A stretch of 40,694 bases of DNA from an archaeon (GTDB lineage: Archaea; B1Sed10-29; JAJSAI01), in the NCBI GenBank assembly GCA_024274695.1, contig JAJSAI010000012.1, forward strand, positions 1 through 40,694, given 5' to 3'. The notes below the pieces were generated by a model. The model did no database searches. It was not told the DNA's origin and was given only the letters and a program-made list of their open reading frames with translations. Shown piece after piece: positions 5,527 through 39,384 of the stretch (the first letter of the stretch is position 1; each line of letters opens with the position of its first letter). The position numbers and the translations under genes were made by a program.

Positions 5527-7026
<1,500 letters not shown>

Positions 7027-7044
7027 TCCGTACAAAAAACTAAC

Positions 7045-7077
7045 GGCAGGGTCGCTGTAGACCGGGATCGGGCTCGC
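7045..7077 (+). other. 3' strand of the 16S processing stem (BHB)
   Basis: Complementary to 5475-5506. Confidence 0.85.
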
Positions 7078-7163
7078 GCAAAACCAGAACATGAGGATGC
7101 CAAGGCAACCCCTTGGTGTCTGAAGCGTAGCCGGTGAGCATTTTCATGCTCCTGCTGGCGATG

Positions 7164-7224
7164 ACGCGCTGTAGGACCCGTCGCTGGAGAACAGGCTAGT
7201 GTCACGCGCCTGGCCTTACGGCGA

Positions 7225-7230
<6 letters not shown>
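7164..7230 (+). other. 5' strand of the 23S processing stem with BHB motif (pairs with 10211-10281)
   Basis: Perfect 18-bp ACGCGCTGTAGGACCCGT/ACGGGTCCTACAGCGCGT; central AGGC/GCCT helix with TAG (7197-7199) and AAA (10244-10246) bulges. Confidence 0.9.
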
Positions 7231-10210
<2,980 letters not shown>

Positions 10211-10216
<6 letters not shown>

Positions 10217-10281
10217 TCGCTCACGCCGGGCGCGTGGCAGCCTAAAGTTCTTCCAGCACCAAAACGGGTCCTACAGCGCGT
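10211..10281 (+). other. 3' strand of the 23S processing stem (BHB)
   Basis: Complementary to 7164-7230. Confidence 0.9.
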
Positions 10282-10990: not shown

Positions 10991-12295
10991 ATGGCGCGCG
11001 TTAAGCAAACTGACAGGAACCTGGGGTTCTGGAGCGCGGTCTCCATAGGCGTGGGAGGGATGATAGGAGCGGGGATATTCTCTATCCTCGGACCGGCCGT
11101 AGAGATCAGCGGCCCCATGGTTCTCGTCGCGTTCCTGATCGCTGGGATCGTCGCGCTTATCAACGCCTACAACTATTCCAGACTGAGTGCCGCGTTCCCC
11201 TCAGCAGGAGGAGCCGTAGAATTCCTGATAAGAGGCCTTGGAGACAACATCGCCACCGGAGGTCTGAACATCCTCTTGTGGGCAGGGTACATTATAGCCA
11301 TGTCCCTTTACGTCCGCGCGTTCGCCGCGTACTCTGCCGCGCTCTTCCCCGCATTATCCGGATCCCAGCATGCCATCATGATCGGGGTCATGATGTTCTT
11401 CACTTTCCTGAACTTCAAAGGGTCTAAAACAGTGGGCCGGAGCGAACTCGCAATAGTCTCCGTGAAACTGGCGCTCCTGCTGTTCTTTGGAGTGATAGGC
11501 CTGTTCTTCATAAAACCAGAACTCCTGGCTCCTGGAGAAAACGCGTCTTCCCTGAACATTGTCTTCGCCTCCGCGTTCGTGTTCCTCGCGTACGAAGGGT
11601 TCGGGCTTATAGCAAACACTGCAGAGGATATACGCGATCCTAAAAAGAACCTTTCAAGAGCGTTCTACACCAGCATTCTTATCGTGGCGGCAGTGTACCT
11701 GCTGGTGTCAGCATCAGTTGTCGGAAACCTTCCTCCAGAAGAAGTGAAAAAGGCGAGCGACTACGCGCTTGCAGAAGCAGCGAAACCTTTCCTCGGGAGC
11801 ATTGGTTTCGCCCTGATGTCCCTGGCCGCCCTCTTCAGCACGTCAAGTGCCATAAACGCAACGCTTTACGGGGGCGCCAACGTGAGTTATATCCTCGCAA
11901 AGTACGGGGAACTTCCCCGGAACTTTGAAAGGCGCCTGTGGCGCAGGGGCACGGAGGGACTGGTGATAACATCACTGCTCGTTCTCCTCCTAGCCCTTTT
12001 CCTGGACCTGAGCAGCATAGCTGTCATAGGAAGCGCGTCCTTTCTGATCATATACGCAGGAGTGGGAACAGCCCACTACATCTCCAGAAAAAGAACAGGA
12101 GGGAATGGGAGTGTGATCCTCGCCAGCATTATCGCGGACGTGCTCCTGTTCGCATTCCTGGTAGCATACCTTGGCATATCCCGGCCTTGGGTGGCCGTGC
12201 TCGTGATACTGGTAATATTCTTGAGCATGGTAATGGAGGGAGTGTACAGGGCGTTATCCGGAAGGAGGATGACGCCAAGGAAGATCAGCTTATAA
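10991..12295 (+). CDS. APC-family amino acid permease
   Basis: GGMIGAGIF, FLAYEGFG, about 12 TM segments. Confidence 0.92.
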   Translation: MARVKQTDRNLGFWSAVSIGVGGMIGAGIFSILGPAVEISGPMVLVAFLIAGIVALINAYNYSRLSAAFPSAGGAVEFLIRGLGDNIATGGLNILLWAGYIIAMSLYVRAFAAYSAALFPALSGSQHAIMIGVMMFFTFLNFKGSKTVGRSELAIVSVKLALLLFFGVIGLFFIKPELLAPGENASSLNIVFASAFVFLAYEGFGLIANTAEDIRDPKKNLSRAFYTSILIVAAVYLLVSASVVGNLPPEEVKKASDYALAEAAKPFLGSIGFALMSLAALFSTSSAINATLYGGANVSYILAKYGELPRNFERRLWRRGTEGLVITSLLVLLLALFLDLSSIAVIGSASFLIIYAGVGTAHYISRKRTGGNGSVILASIIADVLLFAFLVAYLGISRPWVAVLVILVIFLSMVMEGVYRALSGRRMTPRKISL

Positions 12296-12866
12296 CCTCC
12301 CGGGGGACTGCCTGGAGGTACAATGCTGCCCCGAAGCAGAGGACCGCAATGACGAGGAAGAGCACGGCAAAGCTCGTTAGGGACACGATAATCCCTCCAA
12401 GGATCGCGCCGAAAAAGTACAGCAGGTATTCCATGGAGTTCCACACGGCCCATTCCAGACCCTGAACCTTTTCGTCCAAGTGCCGGGAGTATACTGCCTG
12501 GAATGCGGTGTACATCACAGAGTTTCCTGCACCAATAACGGCCTGCACGATGAAAAGCCAGGTCACAGAGTCCACGCCCATCATGGCAAGAAACCCTGCT
12601 CCTGAGACCGCGTAGGAGAGCGACAGCACTTCTCTCCTCTTCTCAGTCTTGTCAAGAATGAGTCCTGCAGCAAGAGCTGCCACGACGCCGGAAAAGGCAA
12701 AAACTCCTGCTGTAAAGCTCGCGTCCAGGAGGCCTCCCCCAAGTTGTTCCACGAACAACGCGTATATAGGGGCAAACATGTAACCTGACAAGAGGACCAG
12801 CGCGTTGGTGCCCAGCAGCACCCGCAGGGCAGGGTTTTTGAGGAACATTGCCTGCATGACAACCAC
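12285..12866 (-). CDS. Half-size (about 6 TM) MFS-fold transporter
   Basis: PIYALFV..LGG, motif-A-like GLILDKTEKRR, six hydrophobic segments, 193 aa. Confidence 0.75.
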   Translation of the reverse strand: MVVMQAMFLKNPALRVLLGTNALVLLSGYMFAPIYALFVEQLGGGLLDASFTAGVFAFSGVVAALAAGLILDKTEKRREVLSLSYAVSGAGFLAMMGVDSVTWLFIVQAVIGAGNSVMYTAFQAVYSRHLDEKVQGLEWAVWNSMEYLLYFFGAILGGIIVSLTSFAVLFLVIAVLCFGAALYLQAVPREVIS

Positions 12867-13343
12867 CTACGGGAACAGGCTCTTGATCCAGCGCCCGAGG
12901 TAGTAGGAAGACATAACTATCGCGAGCGTGAGAACAAGGTGCTCAAGCACTACCCTGTGCACCTTCTCGCTCCGGTCAAACGAGATCTTAACGCTCAAAA
13001 TGACTATAAGGAGCAGCCCCCAAGCGACACTGGTCCATAGTGCTGCGTTCAGGTCAAAGAGCAGCACGGGCCACAAGAAACTCAGCGCGAAAACACATTT
13101 TGATCCCGCGGTGGAGAGCGTTGACTCCCAAACCTGTTTCAGGGTGCTCTCCTCTTCGGATTCTTTGGACATGTGCATGGCAAGCGCGTCAGAGAGCGAG
13201 TCCACCACTGCTATTATTAGTATACCTCCAACAACGGCTGCCTTGGACCCTATCCCCTCTGCCAGGCCTATGACCAGACCGAGAGTGGTTATGACCGAGG
13301 ATGTCAGACCAAAGCTCACTCCAGCCTTCACTGAACCGTCCAT
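12867..13343 (-). CDS. VIT1/CCC1-like metal transporter (minimal form)
   Basis: SFGLTSSVITTLGLVIG and DSLSDALAMHMSKESE motifs. Start reassigned to ATG 13343 because the longer ORF overlaps rnpB. Confidence 0.75.
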   Translation of the reverse strand: MDGSVKAGVSFGLTSSVITTLGLVIGLAEGIGSKAAVVGGILIIAVVDSLSDALAMHMSKESEEESTLKQVWESTLSTAGSKCVFALSFLWPVLLFDLNAALWTSVAWGLLLIVILSVKISFDRSEKVHRVVLEHLVLTLAIVMSSYYLGRWIKSLFP

Positions 13344-13390
13344 CAGACGTACGAAGCACAAAGGAGAATAAAAAAGTTCACGGGAACCCC

Positions 13391-13404
13391 CGAAACCATT
13401 AAAT
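13391..13404 (+). promoter_or_regulatory. BRE-TATA promoter of RNase P RNA
   Basis: CGAAACCATTAAAT ending about 27 nt upstream of the RNA 5' end. Confidence 0.5.
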
Positions 13405-13430
13405 TGTTCCTGCAACAAAATTTTATTAAT

Positions 13431-13706
13431 GGGGATAGCGGGTGAGCGGCTCACGCGCCCCTTGACGGCGTGAGGAAGTTCCTCCCACTCCGTTAACGGC
13501 GTTCCCTTTCGGGAATGTTCCGAGAGGAACAGCGGCAGGAGCAGAAACGACACCCTGGCAGGAACCGCTAAAAAGGATGACCGCACAGCGTGACAAGGCC
13601 ATGCCGGGGATGAAACGGCCTGCCGCCGCCGGGAGTGCAAGGCAGTAATTGCCGCTTAGTAGAATGCCGCTTTAAAACAGAAGGAGGACTACAGCCCGCT
13701 GTCCCC
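13431..13706 (+). ncRNA. rnpB: RNase P RNA (type M-like)
   Basis: P1 GGGGATAGCGGG/CCCGCTGTCCCC, P4 GAGGAAGTTCCTCC and ACAGAAGGAGGACTA, GCAGAAAC, GATGAAAC, GTGCAAG, GCTTAG..GAATG. Confidence 0.93.
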
Positions 13707-36567: not shown

Positions 36568-37641
36568 TCACTTGAGGTAGCTTATGCCCAGGCTGAGGTC
36601 GCTGACCTTCTCGTTCAGACCCTCTGCCACAGGACCCTTGATGTGGGAGGACTTCACTCCTGTCATGATGCAGATTACTTCTACTCTTCCCTCGTACTCT
36701 GGAACCACTCTTGCTCCCCAGATGACCATCGCCCTGGGGTCTATTGCTTCTGTCAGCTTTTCTCCTATGTCGTTGGCCTCTTTTATGCTGAAGTCAGGCC
36801 CTGCGGTTATGTGTATGAGTGCTCCTCTTGCTCCCTCGGTGTCAACGTCCAGGAGCGCGTTGTGAAGGGTGTCTTGCACGACCTCGTCCACCCTCTGGTG
36901 TCCTCTTGCTTCGCCAACGCTGATTACTGAGACTCCTCCCTGGGTCATTATTGACCTCACGTCGGCGAAGTCAAGGTTTATCAGTGACGGGGTCATGATA
37001 GTTTCTGTTATTCCCCTTACTGCTCTTGCGATTATCTCGTCAGCCACTGCAAACGCCTGGTCCATGGGCAGGTTTGGAACCAGTTCAACCAGCTTGTTGT
37101 TGTCAATGATTATGACCGTGTCAGCCACTTTCCTGAGCTTCTCGATCGCCTCGTCTGCTTTCAGGAGCCTGCTCCTCTCGAGCCTGAACGGGTAGGTTAC
37201 CATCGCGATTACTATGGCCCCGTTTTCCTTCGCAATATCAGCTATTATTGGGGCCGCTCCGCTTCCGGTTCCTCCTCCCATTCCTGCTGTCAGGAAGAGC
37301 AGGTCAACGCCTTCCAGGATTTTTGCGATCGAGGCTCTGGAAACTTCTGCTGCTTTTGCCGCGACTTCGGGGTATCCTCCGGCTCCCAGACCGCGAGTGA
37401 CGCTTTCTCCGATCAAGAGCTTCTTTACGGAGTCATGGATTATCCCGAGGTGCTGAACGTCAGTGTTTATGGCGACCAGTTCTGCTCCTGTTATGCCTAG
37501 CCTTGCTATCCTGTTAACAGAATTGTTTCCTGCTCCTCCAACTCCCACGACCATTATTTTTGGCCCGTTAGCAGCAGTTGCTGCTCCTGCAAGATCAGAC
37601 TCTTGCGCCCGAGAAAGTGCGTTCCTTACCACTGATTCCAC
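36568..37641 (-). CDS. ftsZ: Cell division protein FtsZ (FtsZ2-type)
   Basis: GVGGAGNN, AGMGGGTGSG, SLINLDFAD, VIWGAR. PFRLERSR and VPNLP resemble archaeal FtsZ2. Confidence 0.96.
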   Translation of the reverse strand: MESVVRNALSRAQESDLAGAATAANGPKIMVVGVGGAGNNSVNRIARLGITGAELVAINTDVQHLGIIHDSVKKLLIGESVTRGLGAGGYPEVAAKAAEVSRASIAKILEGVDLLFLTAGMGGGTGSGAAPIIADIAKENGAIVIAMVTYPFRLERSRLLKADEAIEKLRKVADTVIIIDNNKLVELVPNLPMDQAFAVADEIIARAVRGITETIMTPSLINLDFADVRSIMTQGGVSVISVGEARGHQRVDEVVQDTLHNALLDVDTEGARGALIHITAGPDFSIKEANDIGEKLTEAIDPRAMVIWGARVVPEYEGRVEVICIMTGVKSSHIKGPVAEGLNEKVSDLSLGISYLK

Positions 37642-37687: not shown

Positions 37688-37698
37688 TTATATATATA
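37688..37698. promoter_or_regulatory. TATA element between divergent ftsZ and SRP RNA
   Basis: TTATATATATA about 22-30 nt upstream of the SRP RNA 5' end. Confidence 0.55.
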
Positions 37699-37719
37699 CT
37701 TATGCCCAAAAAGACACTT

Positions 37720-37992
37720 GGCGGGCTAGGCCGGGAGGGTAGCGGTCTCCTGTTACTGCAAAACCGCTTTACGGCAGGGCCGAAGCTCCAGGGGCGTTGG
37801 ATGCTGGCCTGCTGGAGCCTGGGGCCCAACGAGGAAGCCCTGTCTGGCAGGATCCTGGCCGCGGTGAACCTGGTCAGGCCCGGGAGGGAGCAGCCATAAG
37901 CCACGGTCAGGGTGTCTGCCAGGTAGCAGGGCAGAGGCAAGCTCCACAAGCTCCAGCTCGTCTGGCACCAGCCACCCTGGAGCGCGCCCGCC
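37720..37992 (+). ncRNA. ffs: SRP (7S) RNA, lacking helix 6
   Basis: Helix 1 GGCGGGC/GCCCGCC, Alu domain TAGGCCGGGAGG..CCTGTTAC, helix 8 GAACC-TGGT-CAGG-CCC-GGGA-GGG-AGCA-GCCA. Confidence 0.92.
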
Positions 37993-38013
37993 GCTACGAG
38001 ACGGTGATGTCGC

Positions 38014-38700
38014 TTGGAAAAGTTTTTCATTGGCTTGCTGTTGGCCGCATGTGTCACGTTCGCAGTCGCAGGCTATTTTTCCGCACCAGAAAAGGATGCT
38101 GGAGGATACGTAACAGTGGATATCTTGGGGGTTACTGAAGACGGTGAGGGCGTGGTAATGCCCCTCGGCATGAGCGTGAGGCCAGGGAACGGGAAAATAT
38201 TCGTGGACGTCAGCAGGCCGCTGTTCAGCCCGGATACTCAGGAAAACATGAGGACGGCGGTCAAGGCAGCGGCCGCTGCCGCAGGAAAAGATCCTGGAAA
38301 GTACGACTTCACGTTCTTCCTGGGATCAGAGGACACCACAGTACAAGGCCCTTCTGCAGGAGCGGCCATGGCGATCGGCGCGCTCGCCCTGCTCGAGAAC
38401 AAGCACATTAAGAGAGGCTACTACATCACAGGGAAGATCACTCCTGACGGGAGAATAGAGCCTGTGGGAAGCGTTCTGGAAAAAGCAGGCGCGCTGCCAG
38501 CAGGGTCTGTTCTCCTCGTGCCTGCCAACCAGTCTACTGACACCAAAAAAGTGGAGGAGTGCAGCGTTTCTACTGCGAGAGGATACTACAGGACGGACTG
38601 CAGGATAGAATACGTTCCAGTGGACGTGGAAGAAGAAACAGGGGTTAATATTATAGAAGTCAAGTCCCTTGAAGAGGCTGCTGAAATAATGCTGGAGTGA
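38014..38700 (+). CDS. Exported Lon-type (S16) protease domain, no ATPase
   Basis: N-terminal signal/TM, QGPSAG catalytic Ser, TGKI..DGRIEPVGSVLEK catalytic Lys; TTG start with GGTGA SD. Confidence 0.85.
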   Translation: MEKFFIGLLLAACVTFAVAGYFSAPEKDAGGYVTVDILGVTEDGEGVVMPLGMSVRPGNGKIFVDVSRPLFSPDTQENMRTAVKAAAAAAGKDPGKYDFTFFLGSEDTTVQGPSAGAAMAIGALALLENKHIKRGYYITGKITPDGRIEPVGSVLEKAGALPAGSVLLVPANQSTDTKKVEECSVSTARGYYRTDCRIEYVPVDVEEETGVNIIEVKSLEEAAEIMLE

Positions 38701-38706
38701 GCGCTC

Positions 38707-39384
38707 ATGGTACACTCAAAGAGGTTTCTTGCCCTGTTGCTCGGGACGGGCCTCGTCTTCCTTTTGCTCGGCATCATAGTGCCACTCCCGGTGCAGAGGG
38801 TAACCGTCCCAGAGGTGGTGTACCAGAAGACCCCCTGCCTGGGCACAGAGCCCGCGGAAAAGGTTGTAGTGAACGGGATAGGCCTCTTTGGTAACACCAG
38901 CCAGGGGGAGATAGTGAAAATAGTCATAGAATCAAAGAGAGGGACTGGCAGGCTGTTCGTGGACTTCTTGTCAGGAGCGTACGCAGGAACAGACCTGCAG
39001 GCGTCAGTAGTCCTGGCCGCTGAAGTGGCCTCGGAGTACACTGGAAGGTGGCCTGATGACCTGGACTATTTCCTGACGTTTGAGTCAAGCACGGCAGAAG
39101 TTTCAGGGTCCTCAGGGACCGCTGGAATTGCCGCGGGAATGGTGGCACTCATGCAGGGAAGAAAGGTCAGGCAGGATACTGCTGTTACAGGCTTCGTTAA
39201 CGAGAGCCTGCAAATCGGAGAAGTGCTAAAGGTTTGGGACAAGGTCAGGGTGGCCCAGGAGGCTGGAATGAAGAGAGTCATAATCCCCGCGGTGCAGTGT
39301 AATCAGACCATGATCGCCAACTACACGATACAGGTGATATGCGCCGAGAACTTCTCTGACGTGGTGAACGATCTGCTTGAATGA
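38707..39384 (+). CDS. Second exported Lon-type (S16) protease domain, no ATPase
   Basis: N-terminal TM, SGSSGT (GPSAG variant), TGFV..IGEVLKVWDKVRVA, RVIIP. Confidence 0.8.
   Translation: MVHSKRFLALLLGTGLVFLLLGIIVPLPVQRVTVPEVVYQKTPCLGTEPAEKVVVNGIGLFGNTSQGEIVKIVIESKRGTGRLFVDFLSGAYAGTDLQASVVLAAEVASEYTGRWPDDLDYFLTFESSTAEVSGSSGTAGIAAGMVALMQGRKVRQDTAVTGFVNESLQIGEVLKVWDKVRVAQEAGMKRVIIPAVQCNQTMIANYTIQVICAENFSDVVNDLLE

Follow-up and report, generated by a model that had tools for sequence, protein, structure and literature searches.

A conserved variant of archaeal signal recognition particle RNA that lacks helix 6

Introduction

In the standard account, the archaeal signal recognition particle (SRP) consists of a 7S RNA and the proteins SRP19 and SRP54, and SRP19 always occurs together with helix 6 of the RNA (PMC2905702, PMC4731332; both accounts as far as drawn on here). 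According to Plagens et al. 2015 (PMC4731332), SRP19 touches helices 6 and 8 at their tips, and mutation of the GNAR loop motif abolished its binding in Thermoproteus tenax (PMC4731332). The sections of that study used here also report that T. tenax SRP54 without SRP19 bound the S domain weakly (PMC4731332). Independence from SRP19 is therefore not general in archaea, and where it enters our reading below it is an assumption.

In the review by Zwieb and Bhuiyan (2010), every archaeal subgroup known at the time had SRP19, which coexists with helix 6 (PMC2905702). SRP19 and SRP54 are marked as present in those rows of its Table 2 that are drawn on here, which do not extend to the order-level rows of the Crenarchaeota (Thermoproteales included) (PMC2905702). 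The review makes no mention of Nanoarchaeum or of any DPANN group (PMC2905702). A departure from the common arrangement is described for T. tenax. Its srp19 and srp54 genes are standard, but its SRP RNA is permuted and circularised; this RNA has a GNAR motif that connects helix 6, and it binds SRP19 (PMC4731332). The original prediction for the RNA studied here had pointed to the Thermoproteales as a precedent for loss of helix 6 together with SRP19; this is contradicted by T. tenax, which keeps both (PMC4731332). Our literature search, which covered open-access article texts, found no paper that describes the absence of helix 6 from an archaeal SRP RNA or that discusses SRP19 loss in an archaeal lineage.

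The Pfam family PF01922 is the SRP19 family. As PF01922.12 it is among the CheckM archaeal markers, and one study lists it as missing, without exception, from the Jingweiarchaeales and Parvarchaeales genomes examined (PMC10134863). In a study of 152 Woesearchaeota genomes, PF01922 was among five CheckM markers left out because they were absent from the whole set (PMC8421398). In the portions of these two papers that concern the marker, the mentions are notes on completeness estimates, and SRP19 and the RNA are unnamed there. Papers on cultivated nanohaloarchaea and Woesearchaeota name, in the passages that deal with SRP parts, only FtsY, Ffh/SRP54 and SRP RNA, and for the Micrarchaeota isolate Mia14 the corresponding passage of its paper has "signal recognition particle subunits", plural and unnamed.

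Here we describe an SRP RNA gene in which helix 5 runs directly into helix 8, together with five relatives of the same architecture, and we discuss how an archaeal SRP of this kind may work and how it may have arisen.

Results

An Rfam scan of the window, by which we mean the whole stretch of 40,694 nt that was analysed, gave a match to Archaea_SRP (RF01857) at 37719-37993 on the plus strand, with 130.7 bits against a gathering threshold of 96.5, E = 1.1e-29 and coverage of model positions 1-317. The SRP (7S) RNA gene is thus 275 nt long by the Rfam match, against a model length of 317; the figure of about 273 nt given originally needs only this small adjustment. The same scan of the 40,694-nt window revealed no second SRP RNA. 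The G+C content of the gene is 68%, compared with 52% for the window. The minimum free energy (MFE) fold is one long rod with an unbranched S domain, the Alu domain and helix 8 forming its opposite ends, and its energy of -155.4 kcal/mol compares with -131.9 +/- 4.7 for 200 shuffled sequences (z = -5.0), none of which reached a value as low (0/200).

The terminal and Alu parts of the RNA are of the expected archaeal form. Helix 1 has its 5' strand at 37720-37726, which pairs in the MFE fold with 37986-37992, and the Alu (small) domain with helices 2, 3 and 4 occupies 37728-37782 in the cmscan alignment. The same alignment places the UGUNR motif, here UGUUA, at 37751-37755. A putative loop-loop complement within the Alu domain, GCGG at 37742-37745 with CCGC at 37764-37767, was noted by eye from the sequence.

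Helix 5 is long, its 5' strand extending from 37785 up to the junction at 37861 and its 3' strand from 37904 to 37984, as judged from the fold and the RNA alignment. In the cmscan alignment the 5' strand stops at 37860 and the base of helix 8 begins at 37861, so that the would-be branch point of helix 6 falls at 37860-37861, where about 38-40 model positions are aligned to 0 bases; in the alignment of the window RNA these are 38 Archaea_SRP model positions, among which helix 6 lies. The pairs that close the junction, 37844-37851 with 37915-37922 and 37853-37861 with 37904-37912, have pair probabilities of 0.81-1.0 and correspond exactly to those of helix 5 listed originally. The empty Rfam block and the unbranched MFE fold both bear out the central claim of the original prediction, that helix 6 is missing and helix 5 leads directly into helix 8. 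An alternative fold with a GNAR-capped helix 6 was also sought. The window RNA contains 17 GNAR tetranucleotides and none of them (0/17) is flanked by a stem of three or more pairs, and we therefore conclude that it holds no alternative GNAR-capped helix 6.

Helix 8, the predicted binding site of the SRP54 M domain, spans 37863-37902 according to the cmscan alignment, the fold and the scan of the S domain. Its basal stem pairs GGU at 37863-37865 with GCC at 37900-37902 and is followed by the asymmetric loop (37866-37870 opposite 37897-37899), the middle stem (37871-37874 with 37893-37896), the symmetric loop (CAGG at 37875-37878 opposite AGCA at 37889-37892) and the apical stem (37879-37881 with 37886-37888), which carries the tetraloop GGGA at 37882-37885. 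CAGG/AGCA and GGGA are aligned to Archaea_SRP with the posterior mark "*" by cmscan, and the loops of helix 8 are canonical in sequence. The GGGA tetraloop singled out originally is indeed present, and there is nothing unusual in it, as it falls within the GRRA consensus for helix 8 (PMC2905702). In the part of that review concerned with helix 8, GGGA is given for the Thermoproteales and Nitrosopumilales (PMC2905702), so GGGA alone is no mark of SRP19 loss.

Relatives of the RNA were looked for in a collection of species-representative genomes with an exact 30-nt helix 8 pattern (37867-37896, GGGA included). The pattern was present in 13 other SRP RNA loci, six of them archaeal, six from Thermotogaceae and one from Coriobacteriaceae; a sample collected in this way is biased and gives neither the prevalence of helix 6 absence in DPANN archaea nor its boundary. 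The Thermotogaceae loci (L005, L006, L008, L009, L010 and L012) are large SRP RNAs at about 1908-2174 on the minus strand, and the Coriobacteriaceae locus (L007, 1972-2067) is a small SRP RNA, each with the exact 30-mer, in L007 likewise with GGGA. The archaeal loci are labelled Candidatus Iainarchaeum (L001), Candidatus Micrarchaeota (L011), Candidatus Altiarchaeota (L013) and "uncultured archaeon" (L003, and L002/L004), the labels of these metagenome-assembled genomes (MAGs) being the depositors' own. L002 and L004 are two contigs of one MAG, which leaves five distinct relatives and, with the window, six distinct RNAs. Over 4030 nt, SRP RNA included, positions 1-4030 of L002 and 1-4030 of L004 are 100% identical in reverse complement, which may reflect redundancy in the assembly or a true duplication.

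In each of the six archaeal loci the Archaea_SRP match is full-length, with 272-280 nt and 126-150 bits. The helix 6 block is as empty in the relatives as in the window, 40 model positions being aligned to 0 bases in L001, L003, L004 and L011 and to 1 base in L013, and each of the five distinct relatives has an unbranched S domain when folded singly. A GNAR-capped hairpin is found in none of L011, L001, L013 and L003, nor in the window RNA; the only candidate, a GGAA hairpin of 3 pairs in L004, lies on the 3' side of helix 5 and is not conserved. Outside the 30-mer the RNAs are 43-59% identical, except for window and L011 (77%) and for L013 and L003 (81%).

We take the kingdom Nanobdellati to be the DPANN archaea. 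Micrarchaeota (now Microcaldota) and Iainarchaeota are placed within this kingdom by the NCBI taxonomy. The window and L011 are collinear, with 74.6% nucleotide identity over 2153 nt, and FtsZ of the window has 93.6% amino-acid identity to that of L011, 74.7% to that of L001 and about 58% to those of L013 and L003. The window is accordingly taken to come from a DPANN archaeon, probably close to L011 with its Micrarchaeota label, which is the nearest relative among the loci fetched. The absence of helix 6 is common to at least four divergent DPANN-labelled groups and not private to one genome, and it is therefore treated here as a lineage trait. The independent origin that had been proposed for this RNA is, by the same token, not established.

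The consensus structure was analysed in an alignment of the six distinct archaeal RNAs (window and five relatives; alignment A1), which are few sequences for this purpose. RNAalifold returned an unbranched consensus with 86 pairs, 50 of which (50/86) show at least one compensatory double change. Standard pairs fill 86.4% of the cells, compared with 71.0% when columns are shuffled, and covariation scores 0.534, compared with 0.251; 0/500 shuffles reached the observed value in either case. With the partners slid by 1-3 columns the covariation score fell to 0.09-0.19, a comparison in which the consensus structure is favoured over the slid controls since it was derived from the same six RNAs. Helix 1 is represented by 7 pairs, 3 of them with both sides changed, and in the helix that passes through the would-be helix 6 branch (columns 128-150 with 185-209) both sides are changed in 16/21 pairs. 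The U, G, U and A of UGUUA (T33, G34, T35 and A37 in A1) are invariant in 6/6 RNAs. Double changes between RNAs as divergent as these are hard to explain without selection on the unbranched fold.

Taking together the features of the Archaea_SRP family that were tested, the window RNA shows helix 1, an Alu domain with UGUNR, the helix 8 loops with a GRRA tetraloop and a match over the full model with a score above gathering, and it lacks helix 6. It is a real conserved variant of archaeal SRP RNA in which helix 6 is deleted and the other family features tested are kept.

The two halves of the RNA behave differently when they are scored apart. The Alu half alone (37719-37800) has Archaea_SRP as its best family, with 46 bits over model positions 1-82. 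For the S half, the segment 37826-37940 was scanned, and within it 37837-37935 has Bacteria_small_SRP as best family, with 52.9 bits against a gathering threshold of 40 and the full model 1-97 aligned, a result that applies to the excised S domain only. When the whole RNA is submitted to clan competition, Archaea_SRP is kept over Bacteria_large_SRP in the window and in 6/6 archaeal loci. By blastn, 38 nt comprising helix 8 with GGGA and AUAAG on its 3' side are identical to the six Thermotogaceae large SRP RNAs, and the identity between the window and the bacterial loci ends with these 38 nt, which belong to the core of helix 8 that is conserved universally. At the site of AUAAG the Bacteria_large_SRP consensus reads ..guAag.., while the Archaea_SRP consensus is paired there. 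The characterisation of the RNA in the original prediction as an Alu domain joined to a bacterial-like S domain is thus a fair one.

An SRP19 gene was looked for in the window by matching PF01922 to 125 frames, and the 40.7-kb window, which was the scope of this search, gave no match in any of them. The frames were 33 long open reading frames (ORFs) and 92 further ones, the latter selected in steps. Of 276 frames running from stop to stop with a minimum of 65 aa, 254 did not exceed 260 aa; 216 of these remained when 38 frames of the rRNA region were set aside, and 124 were dropped for an overlap of at least 60% with confident genes.

The surroundings of the gene are archaeal. Divergent from the SRP RNA and 77 nt away from it lies a canonical ftsZ (36568-37641, minus strand; Pfam Tubulin, 3.3e-44, and FtsZ_C, 8.2e-29), which is given here as context only. 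In L011 the two genes are likewise divergent, with the same 77-nt gap, and an FtsZ gene adjoins the SRP RNA in four of the five distinct relatives (L011, L001, L013 and L003). An AT-rich, TATA-like box at 37688-37699 on the plus strand, found by eye some 20-31 nt upstream of the 5' end of the RNA, is a putative promoter, and a TATA-like stretch upstream of the SRP RNA is common to the window and L011. Directly after the SRP RNA, two tandem proteins are encoded on the plus strand (38014-38700 and 38707-39384), each with a weak Lon_C (S16 protease) domain; the first has, as seen by eye, a hydrophobic N-terminus and a counterpart of 46% identity at the same place in L011.

Elsewhere in the window lie a 16S-23S rRNA operon and an RNase P RNA, both archaeal, and a single tRNA. 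The 16S and 23S rRNA genes (5527-10220) are joined by a 194-nt spacer without tRNA, several helices of the 23S rRNA are shorter than in the archaeal model, and no 5S rRNA occurs in the window. The RNase P RNA (13434-13703, plus strand, 148.8 bits) has a short internal region, with 35 model positions against 3 bases. It is overlapped by an ORF of 257 aa on the minus strand (12867-13640) with no Pfam match, which is probably no gene. An ORF of 193 aa at 12285-12866 (minus strand) matches the transporter family MFS_1 over positions 3-171 of a profile of 347. Being half-size and abutting an amino-acid permease gene, it may be truncated.

Discussion

The data presented here describe an archaeal SRP RNA whose S domain is unbranched, and the question is how a particle built on such an RNA might work. 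We consider it likely that the gene encodes a functional SRP RNA, that in its DPANN host SRP54 binds helix 8 alone and SRP19 is absent or without a role, and that the missing helix is an old lineage trait that arose most likely by loss accompanying genome reduction. In the RNA, helix 5 stacks directly on the short helix 8, and no remnant of helix 6 is left. The M domain of SRP54 would bind the symmetric and asymmetric loops of helix 8 directly, without a helper, in the manner of Ffh on the 4.5S or large SRP RNAs of bacteria. Roles of the tetraloop and of a distal site in the SRP GTPase cycle are described in the bacterial literature. By analogy, the GGGA (GRRA) tetraloop may provide the contact with the receptor FtsY and, along with the distal portion of helix 5, may serve the GTPase cycle of SRP54 and FtsY, while the Alu domain would reach the ribosomal factor site. 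SRP19, whose main dock is the helix 6 tetraloop, would be absent from such a particle or have no role in it.

That SRP19 is absent or idle in this lineage is what we would expect, because SRP19 docks mainly on the tetraloop of helix 6 and coexists with that helix. It may instead be kept and bound elsewhere, to the helix 8 tetraloop only or to SRP54, and the particle would then not be SRP19-free in spite of the missing helix. In favour of this, SRP19 contacts the tip of helix 8 as well as that of helix 6 (PMC4731332), and the Mia14 paper, in the passage referred to above, has SRP "subunits" in the plural. The part of the review that treats SRP19, however, has it coexisting with helix 6 (PMC2905702), its binding in T. 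tenax was abolished when the GNAR loop was mutated (PMC4731332, in the section on binding), the PF01922 marker is missing throughout two other DPANN groups in the completeness notes cited above (PMC10134863, PMC8421398), and none of the 125 window frames matches PF01922. Retention of SRP19 thus keeps a minor chance in our estimate. A second question concerns history, since the ancestral archaeal SRP RNA might itself have consisted of Alu domain, helix 5 and helix 8, of the type seen in Thermotoga and Bacillus, with helix 6 and SRP19 arising after the split of DPANN. The domain architecture is identical to that of Rfam Bacteria_large_SRP, a remnant of helix 6 is found in 0/6 distinct RNAs, and the trait is spread over divergent DPANN-labelled genomes, all of which would fit a primitive absence. 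Against this, a clean deletion of a hairpin would likewise leave no remnant, reduced genomes usually lose dispensable parts, and the position and monophyly of DPANN are disputed, as the relevant portion of PMC7414124 sets out; the chance that the absence is primitive appears small to us. Loss is the preferred reading, given the reduced genomes and a dispensable partner, and the absence of helix 6 agrees with the known dispensability of SRP19.

The bacterial look of the S domain raises the further question of whether the RNA, or its S domain alone, came by horizontal transfer from a bacterial source and took the place of the native 7S RNA of the archaeon. The 38 nt of helix 8 shared with Thermotogaceae large SRP RNAs and the best score of the isolated S domain as a bacterial 4.5S type could be read in this way, but the bacterial similarity is confined to that universally conserved core, and Archaea_SRP wins for the whole RNA in the window and in 6/6 archaeal loci despite a deletion of about 40 nt. 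The Alu part alone also has Archaea_SRP as its best family, and the neighbourhood is a conserved archaeal one, with ftsZ adjoining in four of five distinct relatives. Horizontal acquisition from bacteria is therefore unlikely, and for a replacement of the native RNA we see very little chance. An assembly artefact or a decaying pseudogene has nothing in its favour except the low coverage of some MAG records; six distinct genomes with one architecture and compensatory changes speak against it, as do the full-length Rfam match, the strong fold and the absence of a second SRP RNA from the window, and it is effectively excluded.

A conserved natural archaeal SRP RNA without helix 6 means that the rule coupling SRP19 and helix 6 fails in DPANN archaea. 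The notes on a missing PF01922 in DPANN papers would then have their reason in the lost docking site on the RNA and not in incomplete genomes. The particle, in which an Alu domain of archaeal type is combined with a 4.5S-like S domain, would also be a minimal SRP found in nature among archaea, and so a system for asking what SRP19 and helix 6 contribute. The presence or absence of helix 6 is in addition a simple character that can be mapped on the archaeal tree. Should the absence prove to be primitive after all, helix 6 and SRP19 would have been invented later and would set apart the eukaryotes and all remaining archaea, and a discrete RNA-protein character would bear on the root of the Archaea and on the placement of DPANN.

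It remains to compare the RNA with described systems. The canonical archaeal 7S RNA (RF01857), as in Methanocaldococcus jannaschii and Archaeoglobus fulgidus, is similar in helix 1, the Alu helices 2-4, UGUNR and the long helix 5, and equally in the symmetric and asymmetric loops of helix 8 and the GRRA tetraloop, and RF01857 is the best-scoring family for the window RNA. In contrast to the canonical form, the window RNA is without helix 6 and its GNAR tetraloop, the adenosine clamp between helix 6 and helix 8 and the primary SRP19 site; its 275 nt stand against a model of 317 positions, and the proximal stem of helix 8 is shorter. The bacterial large SRP RNA (RF01854), of which we take the scRNA of Bacillus subtilis to be an example, has the same set of helices, 1-5 and 8 with no helix 6, and in Thermotogaceae the same 38 nt of helix 8. 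The window RNA differs from it in having an archaeal host and an archaeal-type Alu domain and overall score, and there is no sequence similarity outside helix 8. To bacterial 4.5S RNA (RF00169) the likeness lies in the S domain, 37837-37935 aligning to the full 97-position model, and SRP54/Ffh is predicted to bind in the same way, whereas 4.5S RNA is without the Alu domain and the long helix 5 that the window RNA has. The SRP RNA of T. tenax (PMC4731332) is, like the window RNA, a non-canonical archaeal one, and the GGGA tetraloop is common to the window RNA and the Thermoproteales in the helix 8 data of PMC2905702. T. tenax, however, keeps the GNAR motif of helix 6 and SRP19, and its oddity, as described in the parts of PMC4731332 used here, is a permutation of the gene, while that of the RNA reported here is the loss of a helix.
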